Shown here piece after piece: positions 29,746-49,629 of a DNA stretch of 64,000 bases. The notes beneath the pieces were generated by a model. It ran no database searches. It saw only the letters and a program-made list of their open reading frames with translations, and was not told where the DNA came from. The stretch lies in contig OZ242008.1 in the NCBI GenBank assembly GCA_965204735.1, forward strand, positions 4,064,001 through 4,128,000. The letters are read 5' to 3'. This stretch comes from Longimicrobiales bacterium (GTDB lineage Bacteria > Gemmatimonadota > Gemmatimonadetes > Longimicrobiales > Gaopeijiaceae). Each line of letters starts with the position of its first letter. Position 1 is the first letter of the stretch. The position numbers were made by a program, and so were the translations under genes.

Positions 29746-29925
29746 CTACAGGCGCGCCTTGATCCTCTGCGCCAGTGCATCGAAATCGTCCGGGCATTTC
29801 TGCGGATCACCTGGATGTTTCTCGCAGCTTCTCTGCCCAGGAGCTTGCGCCCGCCCCCTGGGTAGTCGGTCAATGTCGTTCGCGCACCAACGGTACAAAG
29901 TATCTCTCCTTGACGTGGACTTCTG
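29746..29925 (-). pseudogene. C-terminal remnant of the usual partner gene of the ABC/AAA_21 ATPase (deleted and frameshifted)
   Basis: EVHVKERYFVPL / TDYPGGGRKLLGREAARNIQVIR / QKCPDDFDALAQRIKARL* is read across three frames. Confidence 0.55.
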
Positions 29926-31228
29926 TCCCCGCTTCCCGCTCGCTTGCACCTTCCCCCAAGAAGACTGCGTCTTCCATCCATCCAGAAGCGTGTAGCGTGC
30001 CCAGTCCTTGCGATTCTCGAAGCTCTCTTGCGTTGGAAAGCTCTGCGACTTGACGGATGACTGCATCGCCCGTGTCCGGTCGCCGACACACGACGGCAGT
30101 GTTCTTGAACGTCTGATTGTTGACCATGGCCAGCAACTCCGGCGAGTGCGTCGTGGTCACGACCTGGGATTCACTCTCGGCAGTCCAGGTTTCGATGAGC
30201 TCCAGCAGAAGACGCAAGCGGGACGGGTGAACGCCGTTGTCGATCTCCTCAAAGAAATACAGGTCCGCCTGATCCCTCCCGAACAAGGCGGCCAGGATGG
30301 CCAGAAAGCGCAACATCCCGTCTGACGCGGAGTAGGCAGAGATGTGTCGGCCGCTTCGCTCCGTTATGCGCAACTGCACCTTGCCGCTCACGGGGTCCCT
30401 CGGGAACTCGAAGTCAGCCACGTCCATCGGCGTCAATTCTCTGCTCCAGTCGACCAATGCGCCTCGGCGATCGGAGTCGTCGCAGATATCCTTCAGCACA
30501 GTCGGCAAGTTGTCGCCCCGGTCTCCGAGCGTCGTCTGTCCAGGCAAGGATGGTATGCGCATACGAGTCGGCGACGGGTCGAGGAAGCGCATGCTGGCGA
30601 ACGAGTCGGCGACCACTTGCGCTTGTGTCTTGTGCAAGCGCAATGCCTTCTTGTGTTCGTGCATCTGCGTCAAGGCCGGTTGATCCGGCCTGGCTTCGAT
30701 TCGATGCCCATATTTCCTCTGCTTCGCAGTCTTTGCCATGCGCAACAGCAAGTGCATCTCGTCGTCTTGCTTCCGTACCGGGTCGGGAGGGGGCGGATGA
30801 CTGTTGTAGACGAAACGCTTCCTGTGCTGGAGAGATTCCTCTGTGACGCGAAACGACCCGGAAGCCTCTTTGCTGCGTATCTTGTACGTGACCTTGCTCT
30901 GCGTCGAGTTCGCGATGCCTGTCGGCAACTGCATCTCCACTTCGAGGGCGAATCCGTTCTCTCCGGCCTCTCCGTCTTGTTCGATCCGCACGACCTCGCC
31001 TAGCGCGCCTCGAATCCCGTCCCACTGGACTTCGCCGCCAGGACCGTACTTGCCGCCAAGAATCTCCGCCAGCGTGTAGCCCCGTCCGAGGCCGTGGAGG
31101 AAACGCAGTGCTTCGCGGATGTTGCTCTTTCCGCTGCCGTTGGTGCCGGCGATGACGGTGAACGGACCCATGCGCAGCCGCTCGTCGGCAAAGCTCTTGA
31201 AGTCCAACAGCCTGATGGACGTGATCAT
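29870..31228 (-). CDS. ABC-type (AAA_21/SMC-like) ATPase
   Basis: LDFKSF, GTNGSGKSN, SASDGMLRFL signature, FFEEIDNGVHP, TTHSP. Confidence 0.85.
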   Translation of the reverse strand: MITSIRLLDFKSFADERLRMGPFTVIAGTNGSGKSNIREALRFLHGLGRGYTLAEILGGKYGPGGEVQWDGIRGALGEVVRIEQDGEAGENGFALEVEMQLPTGIANSTQSKVTYKIRSKEASGSFRVTEESLQHRKRFVYNSHPPPPDPVRKQDDEMHLLLRMAKTAKQRKYGHRIEARPDQPALTQMHEHKKALRLHKTQAQVVADSFASMRFLDPSPTRMRIPSLPGQTTLGDRGDNLPTVLKDICDDSDRRGALVDWSRELTPMDVADFEFPRDPVSGKVQLRITERSGRHISAYSASDGMLRFLAILAALFGRDQADLYFFEEIDNGVHPSRLRLLLELIETWTAESESQVVTTTHSPELLAMVNNQTFKNTAVVCRRPDTGDAVIRQVAELSNARELRESQGLGTLHASGWMEDAVFLGEGASEREAGTEVHVKERYFVPLVRERH

Positions 31229-31551: not shown

Positions 31552-33003
31552 TTGTTCTGGCGACTCGAGGAGTGCGGTGTCCAGGCTCTTGACTTGACAG
31601 GACTTGACATTCTGTCGCTGTCCTGCGATACATTAGTATTATGCTCCTTCCTGCCCCCCCCCCCCCCCCCCCCGAGAATTGAGGGAGGCCGTCTTCCGGC
31701 CATAGGGCGTCCGCCCTCCGGTAGCCAAACGGCTGCCCGCAACGAGGTCGGCGTTCGGGAGATATCCGCTCGCGCCGAGGAGCACGAACACCTTCCCCAC
31801 ATCGTCAAGTTCTCCGGGGGACGGTCGTCGGCCGCACTGGCGTTTCTGCTGGCCGAGTCGGGGCTGCTACGGCCCGAGCGGGGCGACGCGATTCTTTTCG
31901 CGAACACGTCAGCGGAGCACCCGGCCACCTACGAGTTCGCCCGGGAGTGCAAGCGCAGCCTCGAGCACGACTTCGGCATCCCGTTCTTCTGGTTCGAGTT
32001 CTGCACGGTGGAGGACGCCTCGCGGGGCGTCTACGTCCGCCGTCCGTCGTACCGACTTGTGCTGCCCGAGCCGGTGGAAGACGATCCCCGTGGCTTCTGC
32101 TCCCGAGGCGAAGTCTTCGAGGAGATGCTTTCCTATCAGGGGATGCTTCCCAACCCTCACAGCCGCTCCTGCACGGCCAAGCTGAAGCTGTATCCGTCGC
32201 ACCAGCTTCTGGCCGAATGGCTGGGGGTCACGGACGGCCCCGCCCACGCCGGCCACTGGGGAAGACGTCGCTTCGTCACCCCCGACACGGCCTTGGTCCA
32301 GTACCGTCGGAACCGGGGCGCGGCTTCTGACGACGTGTACCGGGAGCGGGTGCGCTGCATGACGAATCGTCCGCACGCGCGCTCGGCCCAGCGTTGGGAC
32401 GAGTACACGGAAGCGCCGGTGCTGGCGTTCGGGGAGCGCATTCACGCTGCCGACCGTCCCGCGGGCCCCGCCCCAATGTGGGGACCAGCCGCCGCCGGCC
32501 ACGTCACGCTGCTGGGCCTTCGCGCCGACGAGCAGAAGCGCATCGACAAGATCGAGTCCCGCTCGGTCTTTGCCGAAGGGGCCAGCACATCCTGCTCCAT
32601 CCACACCCAACCGCCGGGCGAGCATCCGATCTTCCCGCTGGCGGAGTGGGGCATCGACGCCACGGACGTTCGCTGCTTCTGGCTGGGACGCGACTTCGAC
32701 CTCCGCATTCCCGAGCACGCGGGCAACTGCGTCTTCTGCTTCATGAAGGGCACCCGGTCGCTGGCGGCTGCGGCGGCTCGGCCCGACCCCGATCGGGAGG
32801 CCGGTGCGCCGTCCGACATCGCCTGGTGGAGCCGGATGGAGGAGCGCTACCGCAGGCAGGTTGCCGCCCGTGACGGCGACGGCACGTCCAGCTTCGGCTT
32901 CTTCGGCCTGAGCGGCCCCACCTTCGCCGAGATCGCCGCGGGCGCCGCGCCGGACCTGGGCCGGTACGCCGTCGGCGCCCCCGCCTGCGACTGCACCGAC
33001 TAA
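31552..33003 (+). CDS. PP-loop (adenine nucleotide alpha-hydrolase) PAPS-reductase-like protein with Cys motifs
   Basis: KFSGGRSS, FANT, SCTAKLK, LGLRADEQKR, FPL, GNCVFCFMKG, C-terminal CDCTD. True start ambiguous (TTG 31552/31594, or ATG 31641 out of frame across the C run). Confidence 0.75.
   Translation: MFWRLEECGVQALDLTGLDILSLSCDTLVLCSFLPPPPPPPRIEGGRLPAIGRPPSGSQTAARNEVGVREISARAEEHEHLPHIVKFSGGRSSAALAFLLAESGLLRPERGDAILFANTSAEHPATYEFARECKRSLEHDFGIPFFWFEFCTVEDASRGVYVRRPSYRLVLPEPVEDDPRGFCSRGEVFEEMLSYQGMLPNPHSRSCTAKLKLYPSHQLLAEWLGVTDGPAHAGHWGRRRFVTPDTALVQYRRNRGAASDDVYRERVRCMTNRPHARSAQRWDEYTEAPVLAFGERIHAADRPAGPAPMWGPAAAGHVTLLGLRADEQKRIDKIESRSVFAEGASTSCSIHTQPPGEHPIFPLAEWGIDATDVRCFWLGRDFDLRIPEHAGNCVFCFMKGTRSLAAAAARPDPDREAGAPSDIAWWSRMEERYRRQVAARDGDGTSSFGFFGLSGPTFAEIAAGAAPDLGRYAVGAPACDCTD
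31591..31642 (+). promoter_or_regulatory. Sigma70-like promoter for the four-gene operon
   Basis: TTGACA at 31594 and 31604 (GACTTGACA direct repeat); TACATT/TATTAT -10-like hexamers at 31629-31642. Confidence 0.5.
31654..31673 (+). repeat. C20 homopolymer in the 5' coding region of the PAPS-reductase-like gene
   Basis: 20 consecutive C. Confidence 0.9.
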
Positions 33004-33032
33004 GAACAAGGACCCGCGCACACGTGAAGACC

Positions 33033-34958
33033 ATGCAAGACGACCTCGTATTCCAGTCCGGCCAGCCCCAAGGATTCTCGACCCTTACCACGACTCAGTG
33101 GGACGGCAAGCCGGAGCCGATCGTCCGCGAACTCCTTCAGAACTGTCTGGACGCCGCCGCAGAGATTGATGTCGAACAGGCGGAGGTGGACTTTGACATT
33201 CGCCAAGTTCCGCTCGACCAACTCCCGGGGATCGGATCGTACCGCAATCACTTCGAAGAAGCGGTAGCCCAACGCCAGGCGGAGACCCAGGGCAGAGCCG
33301 AGAAGAGGGTCATCGATCGCATCCGGCGGATCCTGGACAAGGAAACCGTCCGCTTACTCGTGTGCCGGGACAACGGCGTGGGACTCGATCGCGACCGGAT
33401 GCGGCGCATCCTGACGCAAGGAAACACCAGCAAAGACGAGGGCGGGGCCGGCGCGTTCGGCATCGGCCACCTGACGGCTTTCGCAGGGTCGGACTTGCGG
33501 TACGTGCTTTATGCTGGCCGATGGGGAGACGACGACGGCGAGTTGCACGAGATCGCAAGTGGTCATGCGATCCTGGCCTCGCGCGCTCTCTGCAACGGCG
33601 AAGGTGGTCTCGGGGGCGACGGCTTCTGGTTGCACGGGGAGGAAGCCACGCTCTTCCATCAGTCCCCCTATCCAGACCGGGCGCCGCCCCTGCTGCAAGA
33701 GGAACTGGGGCGGATGACTGACACGGGCAGCGTCGTGTGCATCACCGGATTCAACAACTTTCGGAGCGAGGCCGATCCGGTGCAAGCGATCGCCCAAGTC
33801 GCGGCCAAGAACTTCCTGGTGGCGATCTGGGAAGGGAAGATGGTCGTGCGCGTGCGCGGCGAGAACGAGGCCGAGACCGTAGTAGTGACGCGCGACACGT
33901 TGGGAGATATCCTCGAGCAGGAGAAGAGCAAGAAGCGCGGTGCCCAGACGGGCCGCTGGCTCCCGGGCGCCCAGGCCTACCAAGCGTGGCAGACGTTGAG
34001 AGACGGCGTGCCTTTCAAGCTGCGCGACGGCACGCCAGTCCGCATTCGGCTGCCGGAGGCTCGCAAGCGCAGGCCGGAGTCGCGGGCTCAGATCTTTCGG
34101 AACGGCATGTGGATCACAAACAGCGCCGACGCACTGGAGCCCCGACACTTCAGAACCTGCAAACCTTTTGCCGCGGTCGTCATGGTGGCCGACGGCAGGT
34201 TGGCGGAGCTGGTGCGTGATGCCGAAGGCCCGGAGCACCGCCATCTGGAGCGCAGCCGCCTCTCGCGACAAGACAGTCTCGAGCTGCTGGAGCGGCTCAG
34301 GGAGATCGCGGCCGAGCTGCGACAGCAGGCTGGCGAAGAGGAGGTCGACGACGAGTTCACGCCGGAGGGCTTCGTCATGCTTTCGGGTGATGTGGAACGG
34401 AAGGCGGAGAAGGTGCCCAGCTACCGTCCACGAGAAGGCCCGGGCCAGAACCGTGTCACCGTGTCGAGTCGAAGCAACAAGGAAGAGGACGGAGTGGACC
34501 GCCGGGAAAAGAGCGGCGAGGAGAAAGGCAGGCGCAGGCAGGGGGCGGCGCCCCGGCAGGGCAGAGCCGTTCCGGGCCGGCTGGCGTACCGAGCGTCGCG
34601 GAACGGGGCAGGAACAGTCGATACCGTCAAGGTCGAGTGGAACCATCAGGGGAGCGCCCTGTCGGTAAAGGACCTGCTGGGCGTCCGCGTCAGGGTGCCG
34701 TCCGGTTCCGACCAGACCTGCGAGCAACCTCTGGGGCCCGAGTGGGTCCCCATTCGCGAGGTTCGCTTCGAGGATGGCACAACCCACCTGCCCAAGGACG
34801 ACAACCCGTTCGAAGTGGCGCTGCCCAACACCGCTCGCAAGTTTGTCGTCTTCCTCGACACGAAAAGGCCGCTTGACGATCCCAACGTCGTTGAGGTGGA
34901 CATCGTGCGCCGACGCAGCGACTCGAAGGCACGTTCGGCCGCCTCGTCGGTCGAGTAG
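33033..34958 (+). CDS. GHKL (HSP90/MORC-like) ATPase domain protein
   Basis: RELLQNCLDA (N box), DNGVGL (G1), GAGAFGIG (G2), DTGSVV. Confidence 0.75.
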   Translation: MQDDLVFQSGQPQGFSTLTTTQWDGKPEPIVRELLQNCLDAAAEIDVEQAEVDFDIRQVPLDQLPGIGSYRNHFEEAVAQRQAETQGRAEKRVIDRIRRILDKETVRLLVCRDNGVGLDRDRMRRILTQGNTSKDEGGAGAFGIGHLTAFAGSDLRYVLYAGRWGDDDGELHEIASGHAILASRALCNGEGGLGGDGFWLHGEEATLFHQSPYPDRAPPLLQEELGRMTDTGSVVCITGFNNFRSEADPVQAIAQVAAKNFLVAIWEGKMVVRVRGENEAETVVVTRDTLGDILEQEKSKKRGAQTGRWLPGAQAYQAWQTLRDGVPFKLRDGTPVRIRLPEARKRRPESRAQIFRNGMWITNSADALEPRHFRTCKPFAAVVMVADGRLAELVRDAEGPEHRHLERSRLSRQDSLELLERLREIAAELRQQAGEEEVDDEFTPEGFVMLSGDVERKAEKVPSYRPREGPGQNRVTVSSRSNKEEDGVDRREKSGEEKGRRRQGAAPRQGRAVPGRLAYRASRNGAGTVDTVKVEWNHQGSALSVKDLLGVRVRVPSGSDQTCEQPLGPEWVPIREVRFEDGTTHLPKDDNPFEVALPNTARKFVVFLDTKRPLDDPNVVEVDIVRRRSDSKARSAASSVE

Positions 34959-35800
34959 TGCCCCGCCGCCCCGTGAGCAACGCGACTGCGCACCAGCTGC
35001 CGATCCTCTTGGAAAGCGGGTCCCGGTACGACTGGTCGAGCGCGAGCTACGATCCCGACGTGTCGGTCGGCACCAACCGAGCGACGGTTCAGCACCAAAT
35101 GGACGGGGCACCGGCCTTGCGCAGGCTGATTGAAGACGAAAAGGCGGTTTGGGCCGTTGAATTGCGATGCCCCAAGACCCTCATGGCTCGCGTGGAGACA
35201 TCGTCCGCCGATCGCCAAGTCGTCTCTTGGTCCTCCGAAGAAGTAGACGGCGTGGTTTGGATCGTGCCGGGGCTGATTGCGCTGAACCCCCTCTCGCTCG
35301 ACGGATCGGGCCTGACGTCGCTGTGGGCCGATGCGGGCGACCTCCGGGTACCGGCAGGTTGGTGGCTGGCCAAGGGCGATGCGTACCGTTCCAAGACACT
35401 CACTGAATCTCTGGTCAAGCTTCGTCGCGACAAGGACATGGCCAAGGGCACCATGGAGGTGCGTCCTGACCACAGCGGTGGACGCCTGCGGTTCGCAGTG
35501 CACATGGCGCCGGACGTGTTCGAGAAGGCAAGATCGGACAGGACGTTGCAAGTGGCGGCTCTGGTCGGAGTCTGCGGCTGGTTCCCTCGCGAGTTCGGCA
35601 GGGTCGCAGAGTCGCAGTCCGGTTCCGGCACCAACGATGCACGCGACGACCACCCTGTGGCCCGTGAGCTCAGGGAGCGATTGCGGCGCAAGAACCAAGA
35701 CGTGTCGTTGTGGGACGACGACGAGAGCTACGACCCGGCCTTGGTGGCCACCTTACTGGAGCCCTTCGATTTCAAGGAAGAGCATGACGAAGAAGATTGA
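34958..35800 (+). CDS. Hypothetical protein, third gene of operon
   Basis: Start overlaps the upstream stop; normal globular composition; no motif recognised. Confidence 0.65.
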   Translation: MPRRPVSNATAHQLPILLESGSRYDWSSASYDPDVSVGTNRATVQHQMDGAPALRRLIEDEKAVWAVELRCPKTLMARVETSSADRQVVSWSSEEVDGVVWIVPGLIALNPLSLDGSGLTSLWADAGDLRVPAGWWLAKGDAYRSKTLTESLVKLRRDKDMAKGTMEVRPDHSGGRLRFAVHMAPDVFEKARSDRTLQVAALVGVCGWFPREFGRVAESQSGSGTNDARDDHPVARELRERLRRKNQDVSLWDDDESYDPALVATLLEPFDFKEEHDEED

Positions 35801-36653
35801 CCGACTGGTCGACAAGTGCGGCACGGCCTTCAGCAGGTGGCAGAGCCGAATCATCTTCGACCAAAGGAAGCACGGAAAGCCTACCGAAAGTCGCAACCGC
35901 GAGATCGTCGATAAGGTCAGGGACCGGCAAGAGGCACTGGCATCCGAAGTCGGAAACGGGCCTCAGCAGTTGGGTGCCTACCTTCGTCGTGTCTTGAAGC
36001 TGGGTGTGGGCGACGAGATCGACGCACTTCCCTTTCCACGCGATTGCCTTACCCCCAGCGAATTCGTCAAGCCCCCCGTCGAGCTTGAGGAGGAGCTTGG
36101 CAAGTCATGGCAGAAGTTGCCTCCGCGGCTGGCGTCCCGGCCCGTGTTCTGGCTTCTCTGCCATGTCGCGTGGATCGAGCAGGGTCGTTTAGGCGACTCT
36201 GGCCACTTGGTCCGCGCTGCGTTGATGGACGACCCTCGCGCCAGGGACTCGGAAGCGCGAACCCGCAATCTCCTGCGACGGACCGGGGGCATTTTCGTCC
36301 GAGGCAATGTGTCCGTTTTCTCCAACTGTCCGATGGCCCGGGCGTGGTGGCGCTGGTACTTGGCGCGTCAAGTGGCGGAGGTCACGAAAGGCAGGGTCGG
36401 TCGCGCCGACGCTCATGCAACGTTGCACGCGAGCAATGGGGCATGGGAGGAGCTGGCCATGCTCTCGCTCCGGCGGATCACAGTCGTCAATCAACGTCGG
36501 GCACGGGCGGCCGTGGTGAGCCGGCTGCATGCGCTACTAGGCCAGCACGGGAAGCTGAACAAGAACCACGTAAAGGAGGTCGCGGTCGAGTTCGCCCGTG
36601 TTGGGCTGCGCCGCTCCTTTGAGCATACGTCCTGGGATGAACTGATGGGCTAA
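35784..36653 (+). CDS. Hypothetical protein, possibly DUF6339-like; fourth gene of operon
   Basis: ATG 35784 overlaps the upstream gene. ASRPVFWLLCH and NCPMARAWW resemble DUF6339 motifs from memory. Confidence 0.55.
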   Translation: MTKKIDRLVDKCGTAFSRWQSRIIFDQRKHGKPTESRNREIVDKVRDRQEALASEVGNGPQQLGAYLRRVLKLGVGDEIDALPFPRDCLTPSEFVKPPVELEEELGKSWQKLPPRLASRPVFWLLCHVAWIEQGRLGDSGHLVRAALMDDPRARDSEARTRNLLRRTGGIFVRGNVSVFSNCPMARAWWRWYLARQVAEVTKGRVGRADAHATLHASNGAWEELAMLSLRRITVVNQRRARAAVVSRLHALLGQHGKLNKNHVKEVAVEFARVGLRRSFEHTSWDELMG

Positions 36654-36766: not shown

Positions 36767-38218
36767 TTAGCCCCTCACGGGTTTGACGCCGCCCCGCCGT
36801 CCCAGGCCGTAACCGACTCTGAACACGTCGGGAATGTTGACGCGACCGTCAAGCAATCGCTGAAATATGCTTAACGCCTCCAAATCGTCACGTAGGCCTT
36901 GAGCACCGCGCTCGATCTGACGTGGTGTCGCCTTGACCGCATCCTGTGCCGTGTCGTCGCCCAAACGCGATAGTACGTCTCGCTCCCGCCAGCGCTTCTC
37001 AATCTCCTCGAAAGAACAGGGCACTACCATGCCATCCAAGGTCATCAAGAGGCGGTGCACCCACGGATAGTCCTCCTGGAATTCCTCCACACGAATCCTG
37101 GAAGCCTCCTGAACACCAAGTTTGATGCTGTCAAAATGTAGAGCATAGTCGTGTTCCGGGTGCCTCTCGCGAGTATTGCCGGCTGCGGTCCTTAGGGCGG
37201 CAAGGAACGAACGAGGGCTTACCTTGCCTTCCGCATCTGCCAAGTGATTGGGTATCCACGTGTACGGGAATCCCCGTCGACGGTCTCTGCCCATCCATGG
37301 TCCCGCGAGCTGATGAAAGATGGTGCGCTGTGTCTGCTCGGCAAAGACAAGCTGCCTTGGCACGGCGAAGACGGTTTGCCCCTGCAGATCCAACGACGCC
37401 CAGTGCTCCTTAGTCAGCAGAGGTCGCATCGCGGACCCGGTGGGACCATTGGCCAGCGAGTGCCAGAGGAGCCCGTACAGTTCGTTGGGCGGCCAGTTCA
37501 ATTCCGCACGCGATGACAGTATCTTTGACGCATCTGGGAAGTCGGCGATGCTGGTCTCCTCAACTTGATCCGTCCGCAAGAACGCCTTTACTCTGATTCG
37601 CCTGTACGAACGCATGTCCGACGCAAGCTGCATCAGTCCTCGGATCAACCGGTACATGTCCTGCCAGCTGTCGGCGCATCGATCCAGGGCGTCGAACAGT
37701 ATCAACAGGTATGTCCCGCGACTGTCTAGTTCAACGTCTCGTTTGTCCAACATGACGTCAATCTCTTCGGGTTGTCGCTTAACGTACTCGCATCGTTCCT
37801 GCCAGCTACGTGCTCGTCGCAACGGGTCCGATTCTGCGGACAAGTGCCGTGCAAGCACCGTTCGCCAAACAAGTCGCGGAGCGATGTCGGCCGCCAACAG
37901 GTTCGCCAATACGTCCTTGCTAGGATAATCGTCGGGTGCTGCGCTGACGCCGAATCCCACTGTCACCTCGGTGGCATCAGTTAGGCGCGACTTCTCGCTC
38001 TTTCCCACAAGAAGACGGACACTGCTGTCTTGCAGTGCTTGCCACCAAAACGTCTTGCCCGCGCCCCGCATGCCAACCACAACGGAAACGTCCGGGTCCA
38101 TCGCCTTGAGGTGAGACCGAGGCAGGTAGACGTTGGCGACCGGCAAGGTGGTATCGCCATGAGATGTACCCTCTGGAAGGCCGACAAGGGCCTGGCGCAA
38201 AGCCTGGGCTCGGGTCAT
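36767..38218 (-). CDS. P-loop NTPase (STAND-like/Sll1717-type)
   Basis: VVVGMRGAGKT, LILFDALDR, KAFLRTD, SPRSF. Confidence 0.75.
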   Translation of the reverse strand: MTRAQALRQALVGLPEGTSHGDTTLPVANVYLPRSHLKAMDPDVSVVVGMRGAGKTFWWQALQDSSVRLLVGKSEKSRLTDATEVTVGFGVSAAPDDYPSKDVLANLLAADIAPRLVWRTVLARHLSAESDPLRRARSWQERCEYVKRQPEEIDVMLDKRDVELDSRGTYLLILFDALDRCADSWQDMYRLIRGLMQLASDMRSYRRIRVKAFLRTDQVEETSIADFPDASKILSSRAELNWPPNELYGLLWHSLANGPTGSAMRPLLTKEHWASLDLQGQTVFAVPRQLVFAEQTQRTIFHQLAGPWMGRDRRRGFPYTWIPNHLADAEGKVSPRSFLAALRTAAGNTRERHPEHDYALHFDSIKLGVQEASRIRVEEFQEDYPWVHRLLMTLDGMVVPCSFEEIEKRWRERDVLSRLGDDTAQDAVKATPRQIERGAQGLRDDLEALSIFQRLLDGRVNIPDVFRVGYGLGRRGGVKPVRG

Positions 38219-39483
38219 CGGGTCGCCGCCGGACGAAGATAGCTGTCAAACGATCGCAGGAAGGCGGAGTACGCAAGCGTCACGGGGGCAGCGTCGATCC
38301 TGTGCAGCGAAGAACCGGCGGCCAAGCCTCGATTCCAGTGAATTGCGAGGGGGCTATGAGGGGCAGGAGACTCCCGCAGGTCAAAAGAAAAGGCGTCGTT
38401 AGGAAACGACGGTTCCACCCCGTCGTACAGGTAGTCGCGAAACAAGTGCCAAGAACGCTCAGTAAACCTCGCAAGGTATTGATCTGTGCCGGTCTCTGGC
38501 GTTAGAGCTGACACGATGGACAGTCGGTCTCTCATCTTTTCTGCGAGACGGTGATCGCGCCAATGCGAAAAAACCATCTCGAAGGTGCTCCAAGTGCTTG
38601 CAGAATCGGTGGCGAACAGCATGACATGAGCACCGACGTCGGTGACCGTGGCGGCCGCAAGATCGTGTAGGCCGCTACGGCTCTCGATAACCACGATGCT
38701 TGGTTGCCATGCTTCCTCGAGCGACGTGATCACGCGGTCGAGCCGCTCGGTCCATGGCAACCCCGTGTTGAGATACACTCGGCCGAGCTTTGCCAGGTAT
38801 TCGCCGGGGCGACGTCCGTGGGCGGGCACCACGGCAACCGAGCCTTCAAGGTCTTGGGCCCAGGTCGGCGTTCCCACCATGCGGTCCAAGACATGAGCGG
38901 CCTGGCCAACCAAGTCCTCCACGAACCAGTCTACGATTCCGAACTGGGGATGGGCGCCTTGGTCCAAGACCGTCGAGCCCAAACCCGGCGACTCGACGTC
39001 CGCATCCACGACCAGGACCCGTTCTCCTTGGTGGGCCAAGTGCCAGGCGAGAACCACAGCCGTGGTGCTCCTTCCCACCCCGCCGTTGACCGAGAACAGC
39101 GTGTAGCGGATTCGTCGCGACGCTGGCGCATTGACCGTCTGCCATCCGTTACCAGTGATCATGCGATCAACCCAAAACATGCACCCCGACATCCTCCTCG
39201 CGGAGGAACCAAGCAAGGTGGATGCGGGTGTGTCGAGGATCAGCAAGGAAGCGTCGGGTGGATGACCATGGGCGCCCAGTTCACGACTAAGGCGCGTGGC
39301 CAACTCCGCCAACGCTCCCTGGACCGAGTCGCTGGCCGGTTCGTCAGCGATGATCCGGACCCTGCCATAGAGGTCGCGAACGAGGTAGACGTCGATTCCC
39401 TGAAGTGGAGTCAGGTCCATGGACGCCAGAATCGTTTCGACTCGCTGGTATACGCTGTCGAACCTGATGAAGTCTCCTCTCAT
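38215..39483 (-). CDS. ParA/MinD-like ATPase, GGVGR-variant Walker A, with N-terminal extension
   Basis: FSVNGGVGRSTT, LVVDADVESPG, IESRSG. ATGA-type overlaps on both sides. Confidence 0.75.
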   Translation of the reverse strand: MRGDFIRFDSVYQRVETILASMDLTPLQGIDVYLVRDLYGRVRIIADEPASDSVQGALAELATRLSRELGAHGHPPDASLLILDTPASTLLGSSARRMSGCMFWVDRMITGNGWQTVNAPASRRIRYTLFSVNGGVGRSTTAVVLAWHLAHQGERVLVVDADVESPGLGSTVLDQGAHPQFGIVDWFVEDLVGQAAHVLDRMVGTPTWAQDLEGSVAVVPAHGRRPGEYLAKLGRVYLNTGLPWTERLDRVITSLEEAWQPSIVVIESRSGLHDLAAATVTDVGAHVMLFATDSASTWSTFEMVFSHWRDHRLAEKMRDRLSIVSALTPETGTDQYLARFTERSWHLFRDYLYDGVEPSFPNDAFSFDLRESPAPHSPLAIHWNRGLAAGSSLHRIDAAPVTLAYSAFLRSFDSYLRPAATR

Positions 39484-39923
39484 ACGATGCCGTCCACTTC
39501 CGCGAGGCGCATGATGCGGACGACTTCTCGGGTCGCCTTCTGGTACCGGCTTACCTCCTCTGGGCCGACATGGCCGCGGTTGGCGTAGCGATCATGGTGC
39601 GACCAATCGTGGAACGGATTCCCAGGGGCGAGGCCGTACCTTGCTCCGAACTGGTCGCTGGCAAGGTCCGCAAAGAGTGGCCAGATCGCTTGGATGTGTT
39701 GGCGGTGTTTACGTTCCCGAGGTGTGCCCATGGCATCCAAGGGCATCCACTTGAGCACCTGCATCGCGGCTTTCAGCCCGCACTCCGCGCTGAACCCAAG
39801 GAGATACGCAGCGTTGGCCCACCTGTCGTGGTCGCAGAGAAGGTTGCCGTCTTCCCAATGTCGCTGGTGGGCGTCCACGAAGTCGGCGGGTTGCTCGGCG
39901 CGGTTCGGGTTCGATCTGATCAC
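39480..39923 (-). CDS. HEPN-like domain protein
   Basis: AHQRHWED...ANAAYLLGFSAECGLKA...H...W...DRY. AGGAGG RBS before GTG 39923. Confidence 0.6.
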   Translation of the reverse strand: MIRSNPNRAEQPADFVDAHQRHWEDGNLLCDHDRWANAAYLLGFSAECGLKAAMQVLKWMPLDAMGTPRERKHRQHIQAIWPLFADLASDQFGARYGLAPGNPFHDWSHHDRYANRGHVGPEEVSRYQKATREVVRIMRLAEVDGIV

Positions 39924-40167
39924 TGCGGCCCTCCTGCATCTGTCTGTCGTCTTTGTCTGTCGTCGCCACATGACCGGGCCCGGTCGCAAGCTGCCACCGC
40001 TCTTCCCGCAACTTCGGCCCGTTCGAGCCCCGAGTCAAGAAGTATCCTCCACCACCGTTGTCATCCGCAAGGGGTGGCTCTCGGGGTCGTCGGACACCAA
40101 GCACCAGGTGCCCGCCCATGGTCGTGGGTTGCCAGCCGGCCGCGCCAACTACCGTCGTCGCACTTGA

Positions 40168-40734
40168 TCATTGCGCGTCAAGCTCGGGTATCCAGCGTTT
40201 GTGCACTAGCGTGGTGATTGCGATGCGAATCTGCCGTTCTGTAAACTGGTGCTTGCGTGGACTCCAAGCGTGCGTGCGGCGGAGCGTGTCCACTACCGAT
40301 GTGACACGTTCTCTGTCAACCACCCAGTGCACCGTCGACAACAACTCCAAGCCAAAGGACGATTCGAAACCCTCCACAAGATCGGACACCCGCAAGAAAC
40401 GGGCCTGCGTATCTGGATACTGGCCAAGAAACACACGAGCATCTTCAACCGCACCGGGCACCAAGTCCATTCGCTTGTGCGGGGCATCGCTTCCGTCGGC
40501 ATACCCCGACACAAGATGCTCTTCCACAGCGTTAAGGACATGTCGCAAGTTGTCGGCATATGGTCCATAGTGTCCCTTCCTGAATCTCAAGCGCAGTGGC
40601 TCGCCAGCAATTTGCATAAAATACATCAACTTGTGCACCTCCAACAATGTAATATACGGATCCAATAGCGCTTGATTGTAGCGATGCATCAATTGAACCA
40701 GGACCGCTCTAGATTGGTTGGTTGGCTGGATCAT
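40168..40734 (-). pseudogene. DarG antitoxin C-terminal domain without the macrodomain
   Basis: LLEVHKLMYF, YGPYADNL, VEGFESSFGLELLSTVHW, WSPRK. No macrodomain motifs upstream. Confidence 0.7.
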
Positions 40735-41019
40735 GGACCGGTCCTGGTAGGGGGGCGGATGTCCGAAGGAGCGTCCTGAACGATAGCCTCCGTCGTTCGT
40801 CGGTGCAACCGGGCTTGACCGGGCCTCGCGGATATCCTCTTGGGACGGCCACATCTTCCAGGGCTCGTACGATTCGGTGGACATGTTACCGGGCGTTCCT
40901 GGATGTGTGGTCGCTTCGCACACTTCTGGCTCTTGACGAAGCGGTGGCGCGAGCCCCTTGGGCTGCCGTCCGCATGGATCAAGTACGCTGCGTCTTCATC
41001 CCAAGCCGGAGGAGACGCG

Positions 41020-42967: not shown

Positions 42968-44713
42968 CTACCGTGAAGGTACGCCCAGCAACTTGGTGAT
43001 TTCGTCTCTCAGGACATCACGGCGAGTATCGTAAAACAACTTGAAGTCGGTCATCTCCCTGGGTACGTCACCAAGTCTGTGAAGATCGCAGTACGACTGG
43101 CGCTGTTCTTCGCTCATCTCTCCGCCCATCCAGTCCGCCGGCAACTTGGTGCCCTTGGTGACGTTCTCCGTGCCGGGGAGCAACTGAAGATTGGCTAGCC
43201 GATCGCGACAGTCAACGACGTCCTCCCACTCGTCTTCTGGCAGCCCAGCCTTCCGTAACTGGGTCCTGGTGAACCCAGCCTTCGGAAAGACATGGTCGAT
43301 GTGGAAGAAAAAGCTGTCGACGTTGACGAACGGAAAGAGGAGTGAGAGCAGAGCAAACGTCCGGGAGTCGCCGTACTTGATATCCGCCAGGTCCTCGATC
43401 TCTTCGGGCTCGAAGGCCAAGGATCGACCATGACGAGTCATCTCCCTTCTTATGTCGATCACAGGGAAAGGTCCGCTACTCTCCCTGATGACACTCCGCA
43501 ATCCTGTGAGCAGGGTATCCAGACCGCTTCCCCATATTCCCGATTTGAGGATGCTTCGCACCAACCAGCCACGGATTTCGTTTCTATCTTCCGCATAATC
43601 CCTGCTCGTCAGAAAAGTATCTGTGTGATCCCTCGTATGAATGTAATAGGCTATCGGCAAGACCGCGCTGTCTGCGCGCAGCGTCCGGCTGCTGAACCCA
43701 AAGCTAGCAATCAAGCGAACAGTCCGTACGAGAGAGTCCTTGATGCTCTGCCACGACTTTTCTAGAGTGGTCATGTTCCGATTGTTGAAATTGCCGACCT
43801 TGAATCTTATGCTCCCAATGTCGCTCATCATTAGACCCGCCTTGAGAACCCAATCCTTTGAGAACGAAAACCGTCCTTGGTGTCGAATGTCTTGTACCAG
43901 ACTGCGAATCTCTTTGCGTGCGTCGTGGTCCTTGAATGCCGCTACGGCGACAGAAAGCAAGAGATCAGAGTAAGACAACGGCGTGCCGCCGCTGTTCATC
44001 CGAATGAAGATCTGGAGCACTTTCTCGAGATCTTGGCTGTCTTCTTCATAGTACGCCACGACTTGGTCCTTATGAGTCACTTGATACAGACGCCACAGTG
44101 CTCCCAGTCCGCCAGTCAGGGCTTTTTGACTTGGGTGCTTGTCCAGCCAGTCCTGCATTTCTACAGGGGAGGTCATGGACAGGATATCCGACACCCTAAA
44201 CCAGCACTCGTCGGAATCGGCGTTGTCAAGGTTGCCCTTGGTCAAGAATGCAAAGCGGTATCTCCTGCCTCCCCCGTCTTCGTGGGGCTCCCACAGCAAG
44301 TCCAGGTGGAGATGCCGAATAGGAAAAGCACTGGGATCATTCCAGCGTCGATAGGGCAGCTTCCAAGCCATGCTTCCTCGGAAGCCAATGTTGAGCGCAG
44401 TTAGACGTTGCTGTCCGTCAAGCACTGCCGTGAGTGGTTGTCCCGGCATCGGCTCGTATGATCTGCCGTAGGGCAGCTTGCTTTGGTGATAGTTTAGTAC
44501 GAAGTCGTAGTAGGTGTAATCGCCGCTGTTCTTGGGCTCTACGTTCCAGTACAGGAAGGTCCCGAACGGATAGCCCTGCATCAGGCTGTCGAACAACCCG
44601 CAGATCTGGCGAGGCCGCCACACGAATTCGCGCTGGATTGCGGGCAGAACCAGCCGATTGCTGTGGACCGCATCAAGTGTCTTCTTGATGGTATGGCCAG
44701 TCTGGTACGACAC
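42968..44713 (-). CDS. GmrSD-like DUF262 plus HNH (DUF1524) protein, type IV restriction-like
   Basis: LPAIQREFVW, LDGQQRLT, FIRMNSGGTPL, IDHVFP...LANLQLL...N. Confidence 0.85.
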   Translation of the reverse strand: MSYQTGHTIKKTLDAVHSNRLVLPAIQREFVWRPRQICGLFDSLMQGYPFGTFLYWNVEPKNSGDYTYYDFVLNYHQSKLPYGRSYEPMPGQPLTAVLDGQQRLTALNIGFRGSMAWKLPYRRWNDPSAFPIRHLHLDLLWEPHEDGGGRRYRFAFLTKGNLDNADSDECWFRVSDILSMTSPVEMQDWLDKHPSQKALTGGLGALWRLYQVTHKDQVVAYYEEDSQDLEKVLQIFIRMNSGGTPLSYSDLLLSVAVAAFKDHDARKEIRSLVQDIRHQGRFSFSKDWVLKAGLMMSDIGSIRFKVGNFNNRNMTTLEKSWQSIKDSLVRTVRLIASFGFSSRTLRADSAVLPIAYYIHTRDHTDTFLTSRDYAEDRNEIRGWLVRSILKSGIWGSGLDTLLTGLRSVIRESSGPFPVIDIRREMTRHGRSLAFEPEEIEDLADIKYGDSRTFALLSLLFPFVNVDSFFFHIDHVFPKAGFTRTQLRKAGLPEDEWEDVVDCRDRLANLQLLPGTENVTKGTKLPADWMGGEMSEEQRQSYCDLHRLGDVPREMTDFKLFYDTRRDVLRDEITKLLGVPSR

Positions 44714-44936
44714 AAGACCTCCTCATGGTCTCTATGGGGCGAGGTGTGGGCGCTGCGGGCTTCCACGTGAGCAGAACTTCATTCAATCAGTCAGAAGTCT
44801 ACAGCACTGAGTGCGCGGTGTCAACGACACGGCATGGCCAGCCTGTCAAGCCAGTGGATACACCTCCTCGTAGCCGAGAGCCGTCCGGGGAGAACGCTCG
44901 ACCCGTCGCTGGACCTCGATTCCGATCCGCCGACCG

Positions 44937-46496
44937 TCACACGTACTCCCGGCGCCACTTGCCGAACTCCCGCTCGAGTTCCTTCATCAGCGACCGACAT
45001 TCGCCTCCCGGTCGCCCGGCCTCCGCGTGGGCGACGACCTGGCAGAGGTCGGTCGGGTCCCACCCCAGCGGCTCGGCCAGATTCCGAAGCTTGACGTCCG
45101 CAATCGCGGATGGACCGTCCGCTGCCCGGTCGTACACGGCTTCCAGGTAGTCCATGCGGTCCGCAAGGTCACCGGCTTCGACGTGCAGCTGATCCGCCGT
45201 CGCTTCCAATCTGCGTCGCAGCAGTCTCCAAACCCAGACGGCCGGTGCGTCGTCGCCGGGAAGGAAGACTACGGTCGCTGTCCGCCGCGCCCTGTCGGCG
45301 ATCTCGGCCTCGACACCGGTGTCGCGCCGGTCGCCGCCCAGAACGAACACGAAGTTGCCGATCTCCCCGAACTTCATGAACGCGGCGGCACGGCCGGGAA
45401 ACTCGGAGGCGTCGGCGTCCCGGCCGATCCTCACGCACTCCCTTCGAGTCCGAAGCCGTGGGAACAGGACATCGAAGACGCCGCGGAGGATCGCTTCCGC
45501 CGTCTCGTCCTCGCACAGCAGGCTGAGCGCGTTCCGGGCGCGACCGTAGAGCGCGTCCTGCACGATGTCGCGATAGGGCGCGACGGCCTCGACGCGCCCC
45601 TGCGCATCGCGCTCGAGGAATACCCGGCCAAGGGGGTGAATGGACTCCAGCACGACAGGGCTGTGAGTCGTCACGATGATCTGGAGGCCATTCAGCACGG
45701 ACAACTCCTGCAATTGAAGCATGAGAAGCTGCTGCACCCAAGGATGCAATCCAGCTTCGACCTGGTCGATCAGAACCAGCGCGTCGCGCAGATGCGCAAT
45801 CTCTTGGGACAAGCGCAGTATGGCCCGCTCGCCGGCGGCCATGTGGAGCTCCGAGTACGCCGCGCCTCCCTTCTGTCTGGCGAACAACAGGCTGTGGCCG
45901 TCTCGCGCAAGGTTGGTCACTCCCGAGTACTTGAACGGCAACATCTTCTCGGCAAAGTCCGTCTCCCAGAGCGTCAACGGTCTCTCCTTCGTCGCAGACC
46001 GTCCCCGGGTCATGCCGGCGACCGAGTCGCGAACCTCCGCCGGGTCGTCGAGGTTCCTCGTCACGTGCACGTGGACGGGCCGCTCGGGCTGGGACGCGTT
46101 CCACCGACCGTAGAACGTCTGCCGCCAACCACTGGTGCGGCGCCACCGCATGGCCCGTCCCCCGTTCGGGGTGGAGTACTCGAACTCGATGGCGGCGGGC
46201 CCCCGAACATCCCTGTACGTCCCCCGCCTGGGCCGATAGTCCGCGAACAGCGTGGCCGGCAGAAAGTCTCCGTGGCGCGCTCCGGGCACTCGGTAGGCGC
46301 AGGCTACCGCGGCCAGGACCGTGGACTTGCCGGTGGCGTTGCCGCCGCCGACCGCGACGACCGGCGAGATGAACCCCACAGCCAAGTCGTCGATTCCCCG
46401 AATGCCTTGCAGGCGAACCTGCGTCAAGAAGTGGGGCAGATCGGCCCTCTTTGCCAGCACACGGTCCCAGAGGCTCCGGAGGCGTCTCTCGATCAC
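44937..46496 (-). CDS. OLD-like ABC ATPase with C-terminal TOPRIM-like region, degenerate motifs
   Basis: GGNATGKST, HMAAGE, LIDQVEAGLHP, TTHSP, LLCED, FVLGGD. Confidence 0.7.
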   Translation of the reverse strand: MIERRLRSLWDRVLAKRADLPHFLTQVRLQGIRGIDDLAVGFISPVVAVGGGNATGKSTVLAAVACAYRVPGARHGDFLPATLFADYRPRRGTYRDVRGPAAIEFEYSTPNGGRAMRWRRTSGWRQTFYGRWNASQPERPVHVHVTRNLDDPAEVRDSVAGMTRGRSATKERPLTLWETDFAEKMLPFKYSGVTNLARDGHSLLFARQKGGAAYSELHMAAGERAILRLSQEIAHLRDALVLIDQVEAGLHPWVQQLLMLQLQELSVLNGLQIIVTTHSPVVLESIHPLGRVFLERDAQGRVEAVAPYRDIVQDALYGRARNALSLLCEDETAEAILRGVFDVLFPRLRTRRECVRIGRDADASEFPGRAAAFMKFGEIGNFVFVLGGDRRDTGVEAEIADRARRTATVVFLPGDDAPAVWVWRLLRRRLEATADQLHVEAGDLADRMDYLEAVYDRAADGPSAIADVKLRNLAEPLGWDPTDLCQVVAHAEAGRPGGECRSLMKELEREFGKWRREYV

Positions 46497-47830: not shown

Positions 47831-49629
47831 CCCGCCTTATTCACCAGAGGTGCGGTGAGAGGGATGGCGTGCGGCGGCGAGGCCGATAGGTTCAAGGTGT
47901 CCGGCCAAGAACTGGCGACCTGCCGCTCGCAACGCCGAGGTGAAGATAGTGAGTGCTCCGTTTCGATTCAACAAGTCGGTGCGCGTCGAGGTCCGTCCCG
48001 ACAAGGTGACGGGCGACGCGGGAGCCCTGCTGTGCCGCGAGGTGCTGAGCGCCAGCGGCGTGGACCGCTGGATGAGCGAGCGCATCGACGACGCACGGGA
48101 CCCGCGCCGGATTCGCCATTCGATGGCGGACCTGGTGCGGACGGCGTGCCTGCTGGCCGCCCAGGGCCGGCGAGACCACGACGACGCGACGGTGTTGCGC
48201 GACGATCCCGCGTTCCGGTTGGCAACCAGCGGGCGGGCAGGCACGACGCCGTTGGCCGACGGGCATGGCCTGGCGTCGCAGCCGACGCTGTCGCGGCTGG
48301 TGGCGACGCTGACACGGGGCGCCAACCCGGAGGTGCTGCGGGAGGGGCTGGTGCGGCTGGCGGGCTGGCGGCTGCGGGCGCGCAACGGAGGCTGCCGATC
48401 GCCGCAGATGGTGGTGGACCTGGACAGCCTGCCGATCAAGGTGCACGGCCGGCAGCCGGGCAGCAAGTGGAACGGCTACTTCAAGGCGACGGGGTACCAT
48501 CCGCTGGTGGCGTCGTCGGGCGAGACGGGCGACTTGCTGGACGCTCGCCTGCGGGAGGGCTCGGCCCACACGGCTGAGGGCGGGATGGAGTTCGTGCTGG
48601 CGGTGCTGGACCGAGTGGAGCGGCACTGCTGCCGCAAGGCGGTGGTGCGGATGGACGCGGGCTACCCGGCCGAACCTCTGATGCGGGCGCTCGAGGACCG
48701 GCGCACGCCGTACGTGGCGCGGATCAAGGCCAACTCGGTGCTGGACGAGTTGGCGGAGCCGGGCGTGGACGAGGCGGTGCTGGCGGCTTGGGACGACGAG
48801 GGGGAAGAGGGGGACGAGCGGGAAGAGGCGCGGATGTGGACCTGGGAGCCCGAGTACTACCGAGCCGCTTCGTGGTCGCGGGCGCGGCGCGTCGTGTGCG
48901 TGATCAAGGAGCGGCCCGGCGAGTTCTTCCCGGAGAAGTTCTGGCTGATCACGTCGATGTCGGCCGACGAGATGCCCGCCGCCGCGCTGCTGGCGCTCTA
49001 CCGGAAGCGGGGCAAGGCCGAGGGCCACATGGGGGAGCTGAAGAGCGTCGTGGACCCGGCGTTGTCGTCGTCGCCGCGGCCCAAGCGCTGCTACCGGGGC
49101 CGACCGGTCGCGACGCGCGGCCCGAGCGTCGACGCGTTCGCCTGCAACGAGGTGCGCCTGCTCGTCGCGCTCTTCGGCTACCAGATCATGCACGTGCTGC
49201 GCACCTCGCTGGAACGGGCCACCAAGACCGGCTGGAGCCTGCGCCGGCTGCTGGAGCGCGTCTTGCGCGCGCCGGCCCGGTTCACCGTGTCGGGCCGGCG
49301 CGTGACGACGATCGTGGGCCGCTCCGCGCAACACTGGGCGCTGGCCGTCCGGCAGCTGTCCTTGTTGCCGGACCCGGGCGGCTAGCCACGAAGAACCGAC
49401 TGCCAACCGCCCTCCTGTTCGACGATCCCGGGTCGCCCCGACGCCCCCGTGCGTCCAAGTGCGCTCCGACCGGCCAGGAACGCCTGCCCAAGTCTCGCTC
49501 CGCCCGCCCCATGCTCCCGAATTGGCCCCATTCACGCCGAATTGGCCCCCATTCACGCACTGTCCGCGCCTCGCCGCCGCCCAACCTCCACAAATCCCGT
49601 CCGCACGCCCACTTCATGAATAAGGCGGG
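47831..49629 (+). mobile_element. IS1380-family insertion sequence, 1799 bp
   Basis: Perfect 13-bp TIRs CCCGCCTTATTCA (47831-47843) and TGAATAAGGCGGG (49617-49629); flanking TTGGAC duplication. Confidence 0.95.
47940..49385 (+). CDS. IS1380 family DDE transposase
   Basis: TGDAGALL, LRDDP, ASQPTLSR, DLDS, GYHPL, RMDAGY, YRKRGKAE. Confidence 0.9.
   Translation: MKIVSAPFRFNKSVRVEVRPDKVTGDAGALLCREVLSASGVDRWMSERIDDARDPRRIRHSMADLVRTACLLAAQGRRDHDDATVLRDDPAFRLATSGRAGTTPLADGHGLASQPTLSRLVATLTRGANPEVLREGLVRLAGWRLRARNGGCRSPQMVVDLDSLPIKVHGRQPGSKWNGYFKATGYHPLVASSGETGDLLDARLREGSAHTAEGGMEFVLAVLDRVERHCCRKAVVRMDAGYPAEPLMRALEDRRTPYVARIKANSVLDELAEPGVDEAVLAAWDDEGEEGDEREEARMWTWEPEYYRAASWSRARRVVCVIKERPGEFFPEKFWLITSMSADEMPAAALLALYRKRGKAEGHMGELKSVVDPALSSSPRPKRCYRGRPVATRGPSVDAFACNEVRLLVALFGYQIMHVLRTSLERATKTGWSLRRLLERVLRAPARFTVSGRRVTTIVGRSAQHWALAVRQLSLLPDPGG

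Follow-up and report, generated by a model that had tools for sequence, protein, structure and literature searches.

According to PMC10853773, the DndABCDE system and its CxC/Pbe variants are built around an ATPase core that recruits either a DNA phosphorothioate (PT) writer or a cytosine methylase. In BREX type 4, as outlined in PMC12914056 and PMC12839542, a PAPS-reductase-domain protein (BrxP) stands in the methyltransferase's place, and a desulfurase is found in only part of the loci. PDC-M33, a trio of a GHKL ATPase (A), a protein of unassigned function (B) and a DUF6339-type protein (C), is listed by Payne et al. (bioRxiv 10.1101/2024.01.29.577857) as one of 145 untested PADLOC phage defence candidates. 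Here, a four-gene operon (g1–g4) sharing these traits is considered. It lies in a stretch of 64,000 nucleotides from a Longimicrobiales bacterium (GenBank assembly GCA_965204735.1, contig OZ242008.1, positions 4,064,001 to 4,128,000 of the forward strand), referred to below as the window. The operon is apparently an undescribed, conserved variant which joins the catalogued trio (g2–g4) to a probable PT writer (g1). The favoured reading, held with a confidence somewhat above even, is that of a phase-variable PT-writing module in which the GHKL ATPase would replace the P-loop ATPases of Dnd, Ssp and BREX type 4.

Gene 1 is most likely an SspD-like PP-loop/Cys enzyme that would insert sulfur into the DNA backbone of its own cell. 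An earlier note on this locus, made from the sequence alone, had proposed that g1 writes a self mark by adenylation-dependent thiolation or base modification, and a mark of the sulfur type is supported by the comparisons below and by the SspE and desulfurase context. The motifs listed there (SGGRSS, CTAKLK, GNCVFC and CDCTD) are present and are invariant or nearly so in an alignment of 60 homologues; the conserved cysteines are Cys144, Cys330-x2-Cys333 and the terminal Cys416-x-Cys418 (P0001 numbering). The PADLOC SspD model matches g1 at 8e-11, where true SspD proteins score 1e-85 or better, PHROG 424 matches at 1.5e-28, and HHalign against a true SspD gives 96.6%. Common to g1 and true SspD are the PP-loop, F-x-[ND]-T-x-A-E-x-P, LPNP-x-x-R-x-CT-x-x-LK and G-[IL]-R-x-DE, together with a CxxC and a cysteine-bearing tail. 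The predicted model (predicted local distance difference test, pLDDT, 83.6) has a PP-loop/PAPS-reductase fold with Z of about 10–10.7. Complex prediction of g1 with g4 scored 0.00, 0.68 and 0.00 over three runs. Among annotated phage records no match to g1 was found. The phage PAPS-reductase-like proteins of PHROG 424 carry the same motif set, with a terminal CxCxD-like end in some, but they are of about 280 aa and have no trio alongside in 13 viral loci. On two viral contigs (L090, L093), a cytosine methylase lies close to PAPS-reductase-like genes of the phage type.

By profile comparison, g2 and g3, and g4 through its orthologues, are a divergent form of PDC-M33, so that the absence of a match to a named system, implied in the earlier note, is not supported. 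The match of g2 to PDC-M33A (E 6.9e-32) covers residues 28–504, weaker ones are to sacsin/HSP90 models, and the GHKL boxes already recognised in g2 (E33/N37, D113-N114-G115-G117, G143/G145 and T231-G232) are conserved in 65 homologues. The g3 protein, encoded directly downstream, matches PDC-M33B at 1.6e-4 and a canonical B protein by HHalign at 97.8%; its profile found no match in the PDB. The proposed DUF6339 likeness of g4 stands for its orthologues, 11 of 77 of which match this family (best 2.3e-9), but not for g4 itself, which matches neither Pfam DUF6339 nor, directly, PDC-M33C. HHalign of g4 against one canonical C protein gives 1.3%, and the top ESM Atlas match, DUF6339 at 0.86, is a lead only. 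The g4 model (pLDDT 95.8) is all-helical, and fold searches returned no clear solved relative (best Z 5.0). No nuclease domain was found in g2–g4 by Pfam, PADLOC and NCBIfam, by the profile search with g3 or by the fold searches with g4. Distant plasmid relatives, where three of 17 matches were opened, consist of the plain trio (GHKL, hypothetical, DUF6339) amid restriction-modification (RM) genes.

With PDC-M33 the operon shares the order of A, B and C, and it differs in its divergent clade and in the PP-loop enzyme as a fourth gene, whereas canonical PDC-M33 trios are found next to a cytosine methylase (Dcm), amid RM genes or on their own. The likeness to SspABCD-SspE lies in the SspD-like enzyme, an optional desulfurase and an SspE neighbour in six genomes. 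However, SspB (DUF4007) and an SspC-type P-loop ATPase are missing, and g1, with some 130 aa more than SspD, is distant from it (38% over 109 columns). DUF4007 was not found in the source genome (98% complete), whereas the same model matched 22 of 50 related genomes; DndC (TIGR03183) was also not found there and occurs in two of the 50 other genomes. An SspC-type P-loop ATPase is not matched among g1–g4 by Pfam, PADLOC or NCBIfam, a genome-wide search for it not having been made. The Dnd core consists of an ABC ATPase and DndE, in contrast to the GHKL ATPase and two unrelated proteins here; there is no DndC-level match, and DndD and DndE are not matched among g1–g4 (PADLOC, NCBIfam). PglZ, BrxC, BrxL and DUF4007 of BREX type 4 are likewise missing from the operon, the PADLOC models giving only BrxP at E 0.07. 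For the Tdp PT system (writer TdpC, with TdpAB), which PMC12914056 mentions, no Tdp-named model came up in the scans. A literature search, with subscription papers and supplements outside its scope, returned nothing on PDC-M33 or DUF6339, nothing combining PAPS reductase, GHKL, phosphorothioate and defense system and, judged by titles and the opening of abstracts, nothing on this operon. Neither GHKL nor MORC is mentioned in the main text of PMC10853773, PMC12839542 or PMC12707154.

The four genes are real, conserved and travel together as one operon. A scan of GTDB genomes gave 180 g2 relatives, and the best 80 of these 180 (79 genomes) were examined and underlie all counts out of 80 given here. 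Gene 1 lies upstream of g2 in 72 loci, abutting it in 70, and all four genes occur together in 69, three loci being interrupted by contig ends; the synteny spans five phyla. Eight loci have no g1 upstream. In five of them the locus also contains a second trio with a DUF6339::PP-loop fusion gene, one is a second copy ordered g2-g3-g4-g1-desulfurase, one is at a contig edge and one holds an N4/N6 methylase with a nuclease-like gene. In L041 the gene order is rearranged and g1 is still with the trio. No Dcm was found in the flanks (up to 7 kb) of the 80 loci. In the genome with loci L017 and L102 (G015), a tandem array of g1, desulfurase, trio, g1, trio, an extra g4 and a g3/g4 fusion-like open reading frame (ORF) was observed.

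The modifier slot of PDC-M33-like trios swaps between a cytosine methylase and a PP-loop enzyme, as the earlier note had supposed. Further PDC-M33A matches were collected from phylum samples of 401, 351, 301 and 301 genomes, from which 26 regions were taken, most previously obtained matches being left out. Dcm abuts related trios upstream in L116, L123 and L130 and downstream in L121, and is convergent in L117. In the source genome, a second, distant trio (GHKL, unknown, DUF6339) is followed by Dcm (C1:90278-95598; L142:4279-9599, minus strand). Other sampled regions contain g1 (L118, L119), g1 with a desulfurase (L131–L134) or a PP-loop fusion (L124, L125), while L115, L126–L129, L138 and L140 have no recognised modifier; the trio of L083 also lacks an adjacent one. 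L140, at C1:3070847-3073294 of the source genome, is a third distant PDC-M33A-like GHKL gene whose frame is apparently interrupted. In L118 and L119, from two small Pseudomonadota genomes, the four-gene operon stands alone amid housekeeping genes, with neither tract nor effector. A second PP-loop lineage, fused to DUF6339 or encoded separately, accompanies trios of another GHKL clade. A quick GHKL tree was built from 69 of 114 rows, g1-type rows being thinned and six duplicate or partial loci dropped; it separates the g1-bearing clade (SH-aLRT 98) from one that holds the Dcm trios and both the fused and the separate second-type PP-loop trios. The second-type enzyme has a different PP-loop and reaches only 16 bits against the g1 profile, so that acquisition of a PP-loop enzyme by the trio most likely happened two or more times.

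Two kinds of neighbour point to sulfur chemistry: a desulfurase in or directly after the operon in six genomes, and SspE beside it in six genomes where no Dnd/Ssp writer was found. A class-V PLP cysteine desulfurase is encoded between g1 and g2 in five genomes (L102/L017, L131–L134) and directly after g1 in L041, with 357–416 bits on the IscS, NifS and DndA models. The six genomes belong to one subclade and therefore represent about one event. In known systems housekeeping desulfurases stand in for DndA (PMC10853773, PMC12839542), and the source genome has several of them. In 6 of the 80 loci the flanks of the operon contain a full-length SspE gene. Fifty operon-bearing genomes, picked to include all six of these, were searched with profiles; SspE was found in those six only, once per genome and no more than 7 kb from the operon. 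The six yielded no DUF4007 or DndC match and no strong SspD match, while DUF4007 occurs in 22 of the 44 others (p 0.028, kin not being independent). A DndD search in five SspE genomes gave no match, and neither did its positive control. The L067 SspE matches a solved SspE at 2.5e-181, and the counterparts of Y63, R133 and N724 are conserved in it, the first two within motifs common to DUF262 proteins; SspE activity is described as strictly PT-dependent in PMC13251355. In 300 randomly drawn Chloroflexota, two more-or-less independent SspE copies were found, neither an orphan, one being beside this operon type and the other 5 kb from DUF4007. PbeA/PbeC follow g4 in six Acidobacteriota loci and PbeA is present in L134; according to PMC10853773, Pbe/CxC systems pair with methylases too. 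DUF262 proteins are encoded near 12 loci. For the PT-binding SBD-HNH proteins, 29 matches were found in 23 of the 50 genomes, eight near the operon (seven of these selected) and six near Ssp genes, so that their adjacency to the operon is weak evidence. A link between a frameshifted operon and SBD-HNH was rejected: the first set gave 11/22 vs 1/20 (p 0.0017), or 11/22 vs 2/22 with two motif-missed loci added, and a further set did not replicate it (4/9 vs 5/16, p 0.67). The source genome has two SBD-HNH-like genes of this PT-binding restriction endonuclease family (C1:670502-671671 and 1592087-1593088), and four PT-binding restriction endonuclease genes stand in tandem at G1418:C286:6101-10056.

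A feature that the earlier note overlooked is a C20 tract, which begins 13 nt after the likely g1 start codon and throws it out of frame. No other C/G run of at least 9 is present in the window, and the tract is one of 27 of at least 12 in the source genome. Slippage in this tract probably switches g1 on and off, judging from where such runs lie in related operons. Of 49 runs of at least 9 in the 80 loci and the window, the operon, which makes up 34% of the bases, holds 33: g1, with 9% of the bases, has 26, g2 has seven and g3–g4 have none; two additional 5' runs lay just beyond the counting mask. They are found at the start, middle or end of g1 or inside g2, and therefore arose repeatedly, and the enrichment in g1–g2 holds across phyla. 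Broken frames occur in 19 of 33 tract-bearing vs 2 of 34 tract-free loci (g2 not being scorable in many), and a frameshift or break in g1 was recorded at 18 of the 67 loci scored, often beside an intact trio. In the Dcm-type trio of the source genome, the GHKL start codon is directly followed by a C18 run. A G tract is present in pglX of the Streptomyces Pgl system. The long C/G runs of the source genome, which mostly precede very long surface-protein-like ORFs and are also found in a methylase-like gene (C1:2687460) and at both GHKL-trio operons, are a candidate set of contingency loci. That methylases can vary in phase through slippage is established (PMC12707154).

The tight, co-oriented packing that had been seen for the operon holds: g1 and g2 are separated by 29 nt, g2 and g3 overlap by 1 nt and g3 and g4 by 17 nt (Table 1). 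The likely start of g1 is ATG 31641, because of the starts in P0007, L001 and L002. The position given earlier, 31552, is upstream of the promoter-like element; this start and a TTG within the -35 region were rejected, since in L001 a stop codon precedes the corresponding ATG by 14 nt and P0007 opens with the same residues as the product of ATG 31641. As to the single promoter claimed earlier, a promoter-like TTGACA/TACATT element ends 6 nt 5' of this ATG, with a comparable element upstream of L002; its spacing is 19 nt, and a consensus scan with 16–18 nt spacing found no site. The g1 transcript is possibly leaderless. The whole stretch is spanned by a single contig of an independent sequencing run; contigs of the independent run skip the C repeat. 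The closest homologues are in Longimicrobiales genome bins, and several holders of the region are sponge metagenomes; no RNA data set was among the listed holders. A tRNA scan of the window found none.

Table 1. Coordinates of the operon and its control elements in the window
Feature	Position	Strand	Assignment or basis
Gene 1 (g1)	31641..33003	+	SspD-like PP-loop enzyme; DNA modifier that likely inserts sulfur; its ATG (31641) is out of frame in the assembly
Gene 2 (g2)	33033..34958	+	GHKL (MutL/MORC/Hsp90-type) ATPase; divergent PDC-M33A
Gene 3 (g3)	34958..35800	+	Function not assigned; divergent PDC-M33B
Gene 4 (g4)	35784..36653	+	All-alpha; distant kin of DUF6339 / PDC-M33C
Promoter-like element (TTGACA 31604-31609, 19 nt, TACATT 31629-31634)	31604..31634	+	Sequence; inference
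C20 homopolymer, candidate g1 phase-variation switch	31654..31673	+	Sequence

The flanks of the operon read as a defence island, as had been proposed, because their genes match the PADLOC models PDC-M07A, PDC-M28ABC, DarG-like, Fic, HEC-05 and HEC-04. A PDC-M07A-type ABC ATPase (29870-31228, minus) is divergent from the operon, and a complete PDC-M28ABC candidate system (36767-39989, minus) converges toward g4. Farther away are the C-terminal part of DarG (40168-40923, minus; macro domain unmatched, probably a fragment), HEC-05 (GmrSD/BrxU-type, E 1.9e-207) with a HEC-04-like ATPase (42968-46496, minus) and an IS1380-like transposase (47940-49385).

It is proposed that g1 would adenylate the backbone phosphate with ATP via its PP-loop, would hold an Fe-S cluster on Cys144/Cys330/Cys333 and would receive persulfide sulfur, probably on the terminal CxC, from an IscS/DndA-type desulfurase, encoded within the operon in one subclade and presumably a housekeeping enzyme here. 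This mechanism of sulfur insertion is inferred from TdpC and from DndC (PMC10853773). The GHKL ATPase with g3 and g4 would form a DNA-loading, site-selecting core in the role of DndDE or SspBC, defence would be exerted by exchangeable PT-reading effectors (SspE, Pbe, DUF262 proteins), adjacent or elsewhere, and C-run slippage would toggle marking in subpopulations. A wider version of this proposal, given somewhat less than an even chance, assumes a further class of PT writers in which a GHKL (MutL/MORC-type) clamp takes the place of the P-loop ATPase. The PDC-M33 trio would have acquired such a writer on two occasions, SspE would be licensed by it in genomes that have no known writer, and homopolymer slippage would turn it on and off, which would amount to a phase-variable backbone epigenome in sponge symbionts.

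Several points weigh against PT writing by this operon. According to section 6 of PMC12914056, published PT writers all combine a PAPS-reductase domain with a P-loop NTPase, which the operon does not have, and in one strain mentioned in that paper a PAPS reductase plus ATPase is present without PT. The tied Z of 10.1–10.7 does not separate g1 from other PP-loop enzymes, and its phage-borne relatives exist without the trio. The desulfurases score below every NCBIfam cut-off, that of DndA included. The six SspE genomes were selected for adjacency and represent about 2–3 independent events, three of the six SspE genes abut the fused second PP-loop lineage and not g1, and most loci, the source locus included, have neither desulfurase nor SspE. 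As to the part of the trio, an effector role is kept in play by those copies that have no modifier next to them. Long homopolymers are often miscalled and the phase in any single assembly is unsure; an assembly error could explain the phase in a single record, not the placement of the runs. PT modification and phage resistance by the operon are themselves predictions.

An unlikely alternative is that g1 thiolates, or otherwise modifies after adenylation, a DNA base or RNA in the manner of TtuA, NcsA or MnmA, with the trio as the targeting core. TtuA, LarE, MnmA and NcsA do head its Foldseek list (E above 0.01), the slot is shared with the base modifier Dcm, and a desulfurase is compatible with any thiolation, but the motifs of g1 match SspD column by column, and the SspE and Pbe neighbours read backbone PT. 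It is also rather unlikely that g1 adds a protective mark while g2–g4 act as sensor and effector against unmarked DNA, as in restriction-modification, or as a mark-dependent trio in a BREX-like variant. Such roles would suit the cataloguing of PDC-M33 as a stand-alone defence candidate, the trios lacking an adjacent modifier (L083, L115, L126–L129) and the many four-gene loci amid housekeeping genes with no nuclease alongside. However, the classical sensor/effector role assigned to the trio in the earlier note probably does not apply, and it is more likely that the trio helps to write the mark than that it cuts unmarked DNA, because no nuclease is recognisable in it, because g1 is off in the 18 scored loci, which classical restriction would make lethal unless these are assembly errors or polar, and because a tract in g1 or in g2 seems equivalent, as one pathway predicts.

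The marking could also act as an orphan, phasevarion-like switch that alters the expression of genes, or redox protection, in subpopulations of the symbiont, with no defence role at most loci. The company of the long C/G runs at surface-protein-like ORFs and the lack of an effector at most loci agree with this, but the defence-island setting and the repeated pairing with SspE, Pbe and DUF262 make it quite improbable; it is compatible with PT writing and does not exclude it. A last reading, with g1 as a metabolic PAPS/APS reductase or as a neighbour that came to the island by chance, is suggested by the weak Pfam PAPS_reduct match (0.0079) and is largely refuted by the 72/80 synteny across five phyla, by a sister clade whose PP-loop domain is fused to DUF6339 and by rearranged orders which keep g1 with the trio, leaving this explanation very improbable.

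Surveys for PT genes require a PAPS-reductase domain together with a P-loop NTPase (PMC12914056, section 6), and a GHKL-based writer would therefore have been missed. If PT writing by this operon is correct, PDC-M33 and DUF6339 would acquire a function, SspE genes that look like orphans would be explained, and one core would be seen to alternate between methyl and sulfur chemistry. The operon would also offer a compact four- or five-gene system for studying PT site choice. Phase-variable PT marking, if true, would carry the phasevarion concept beyond methylases to the DNA backbone.

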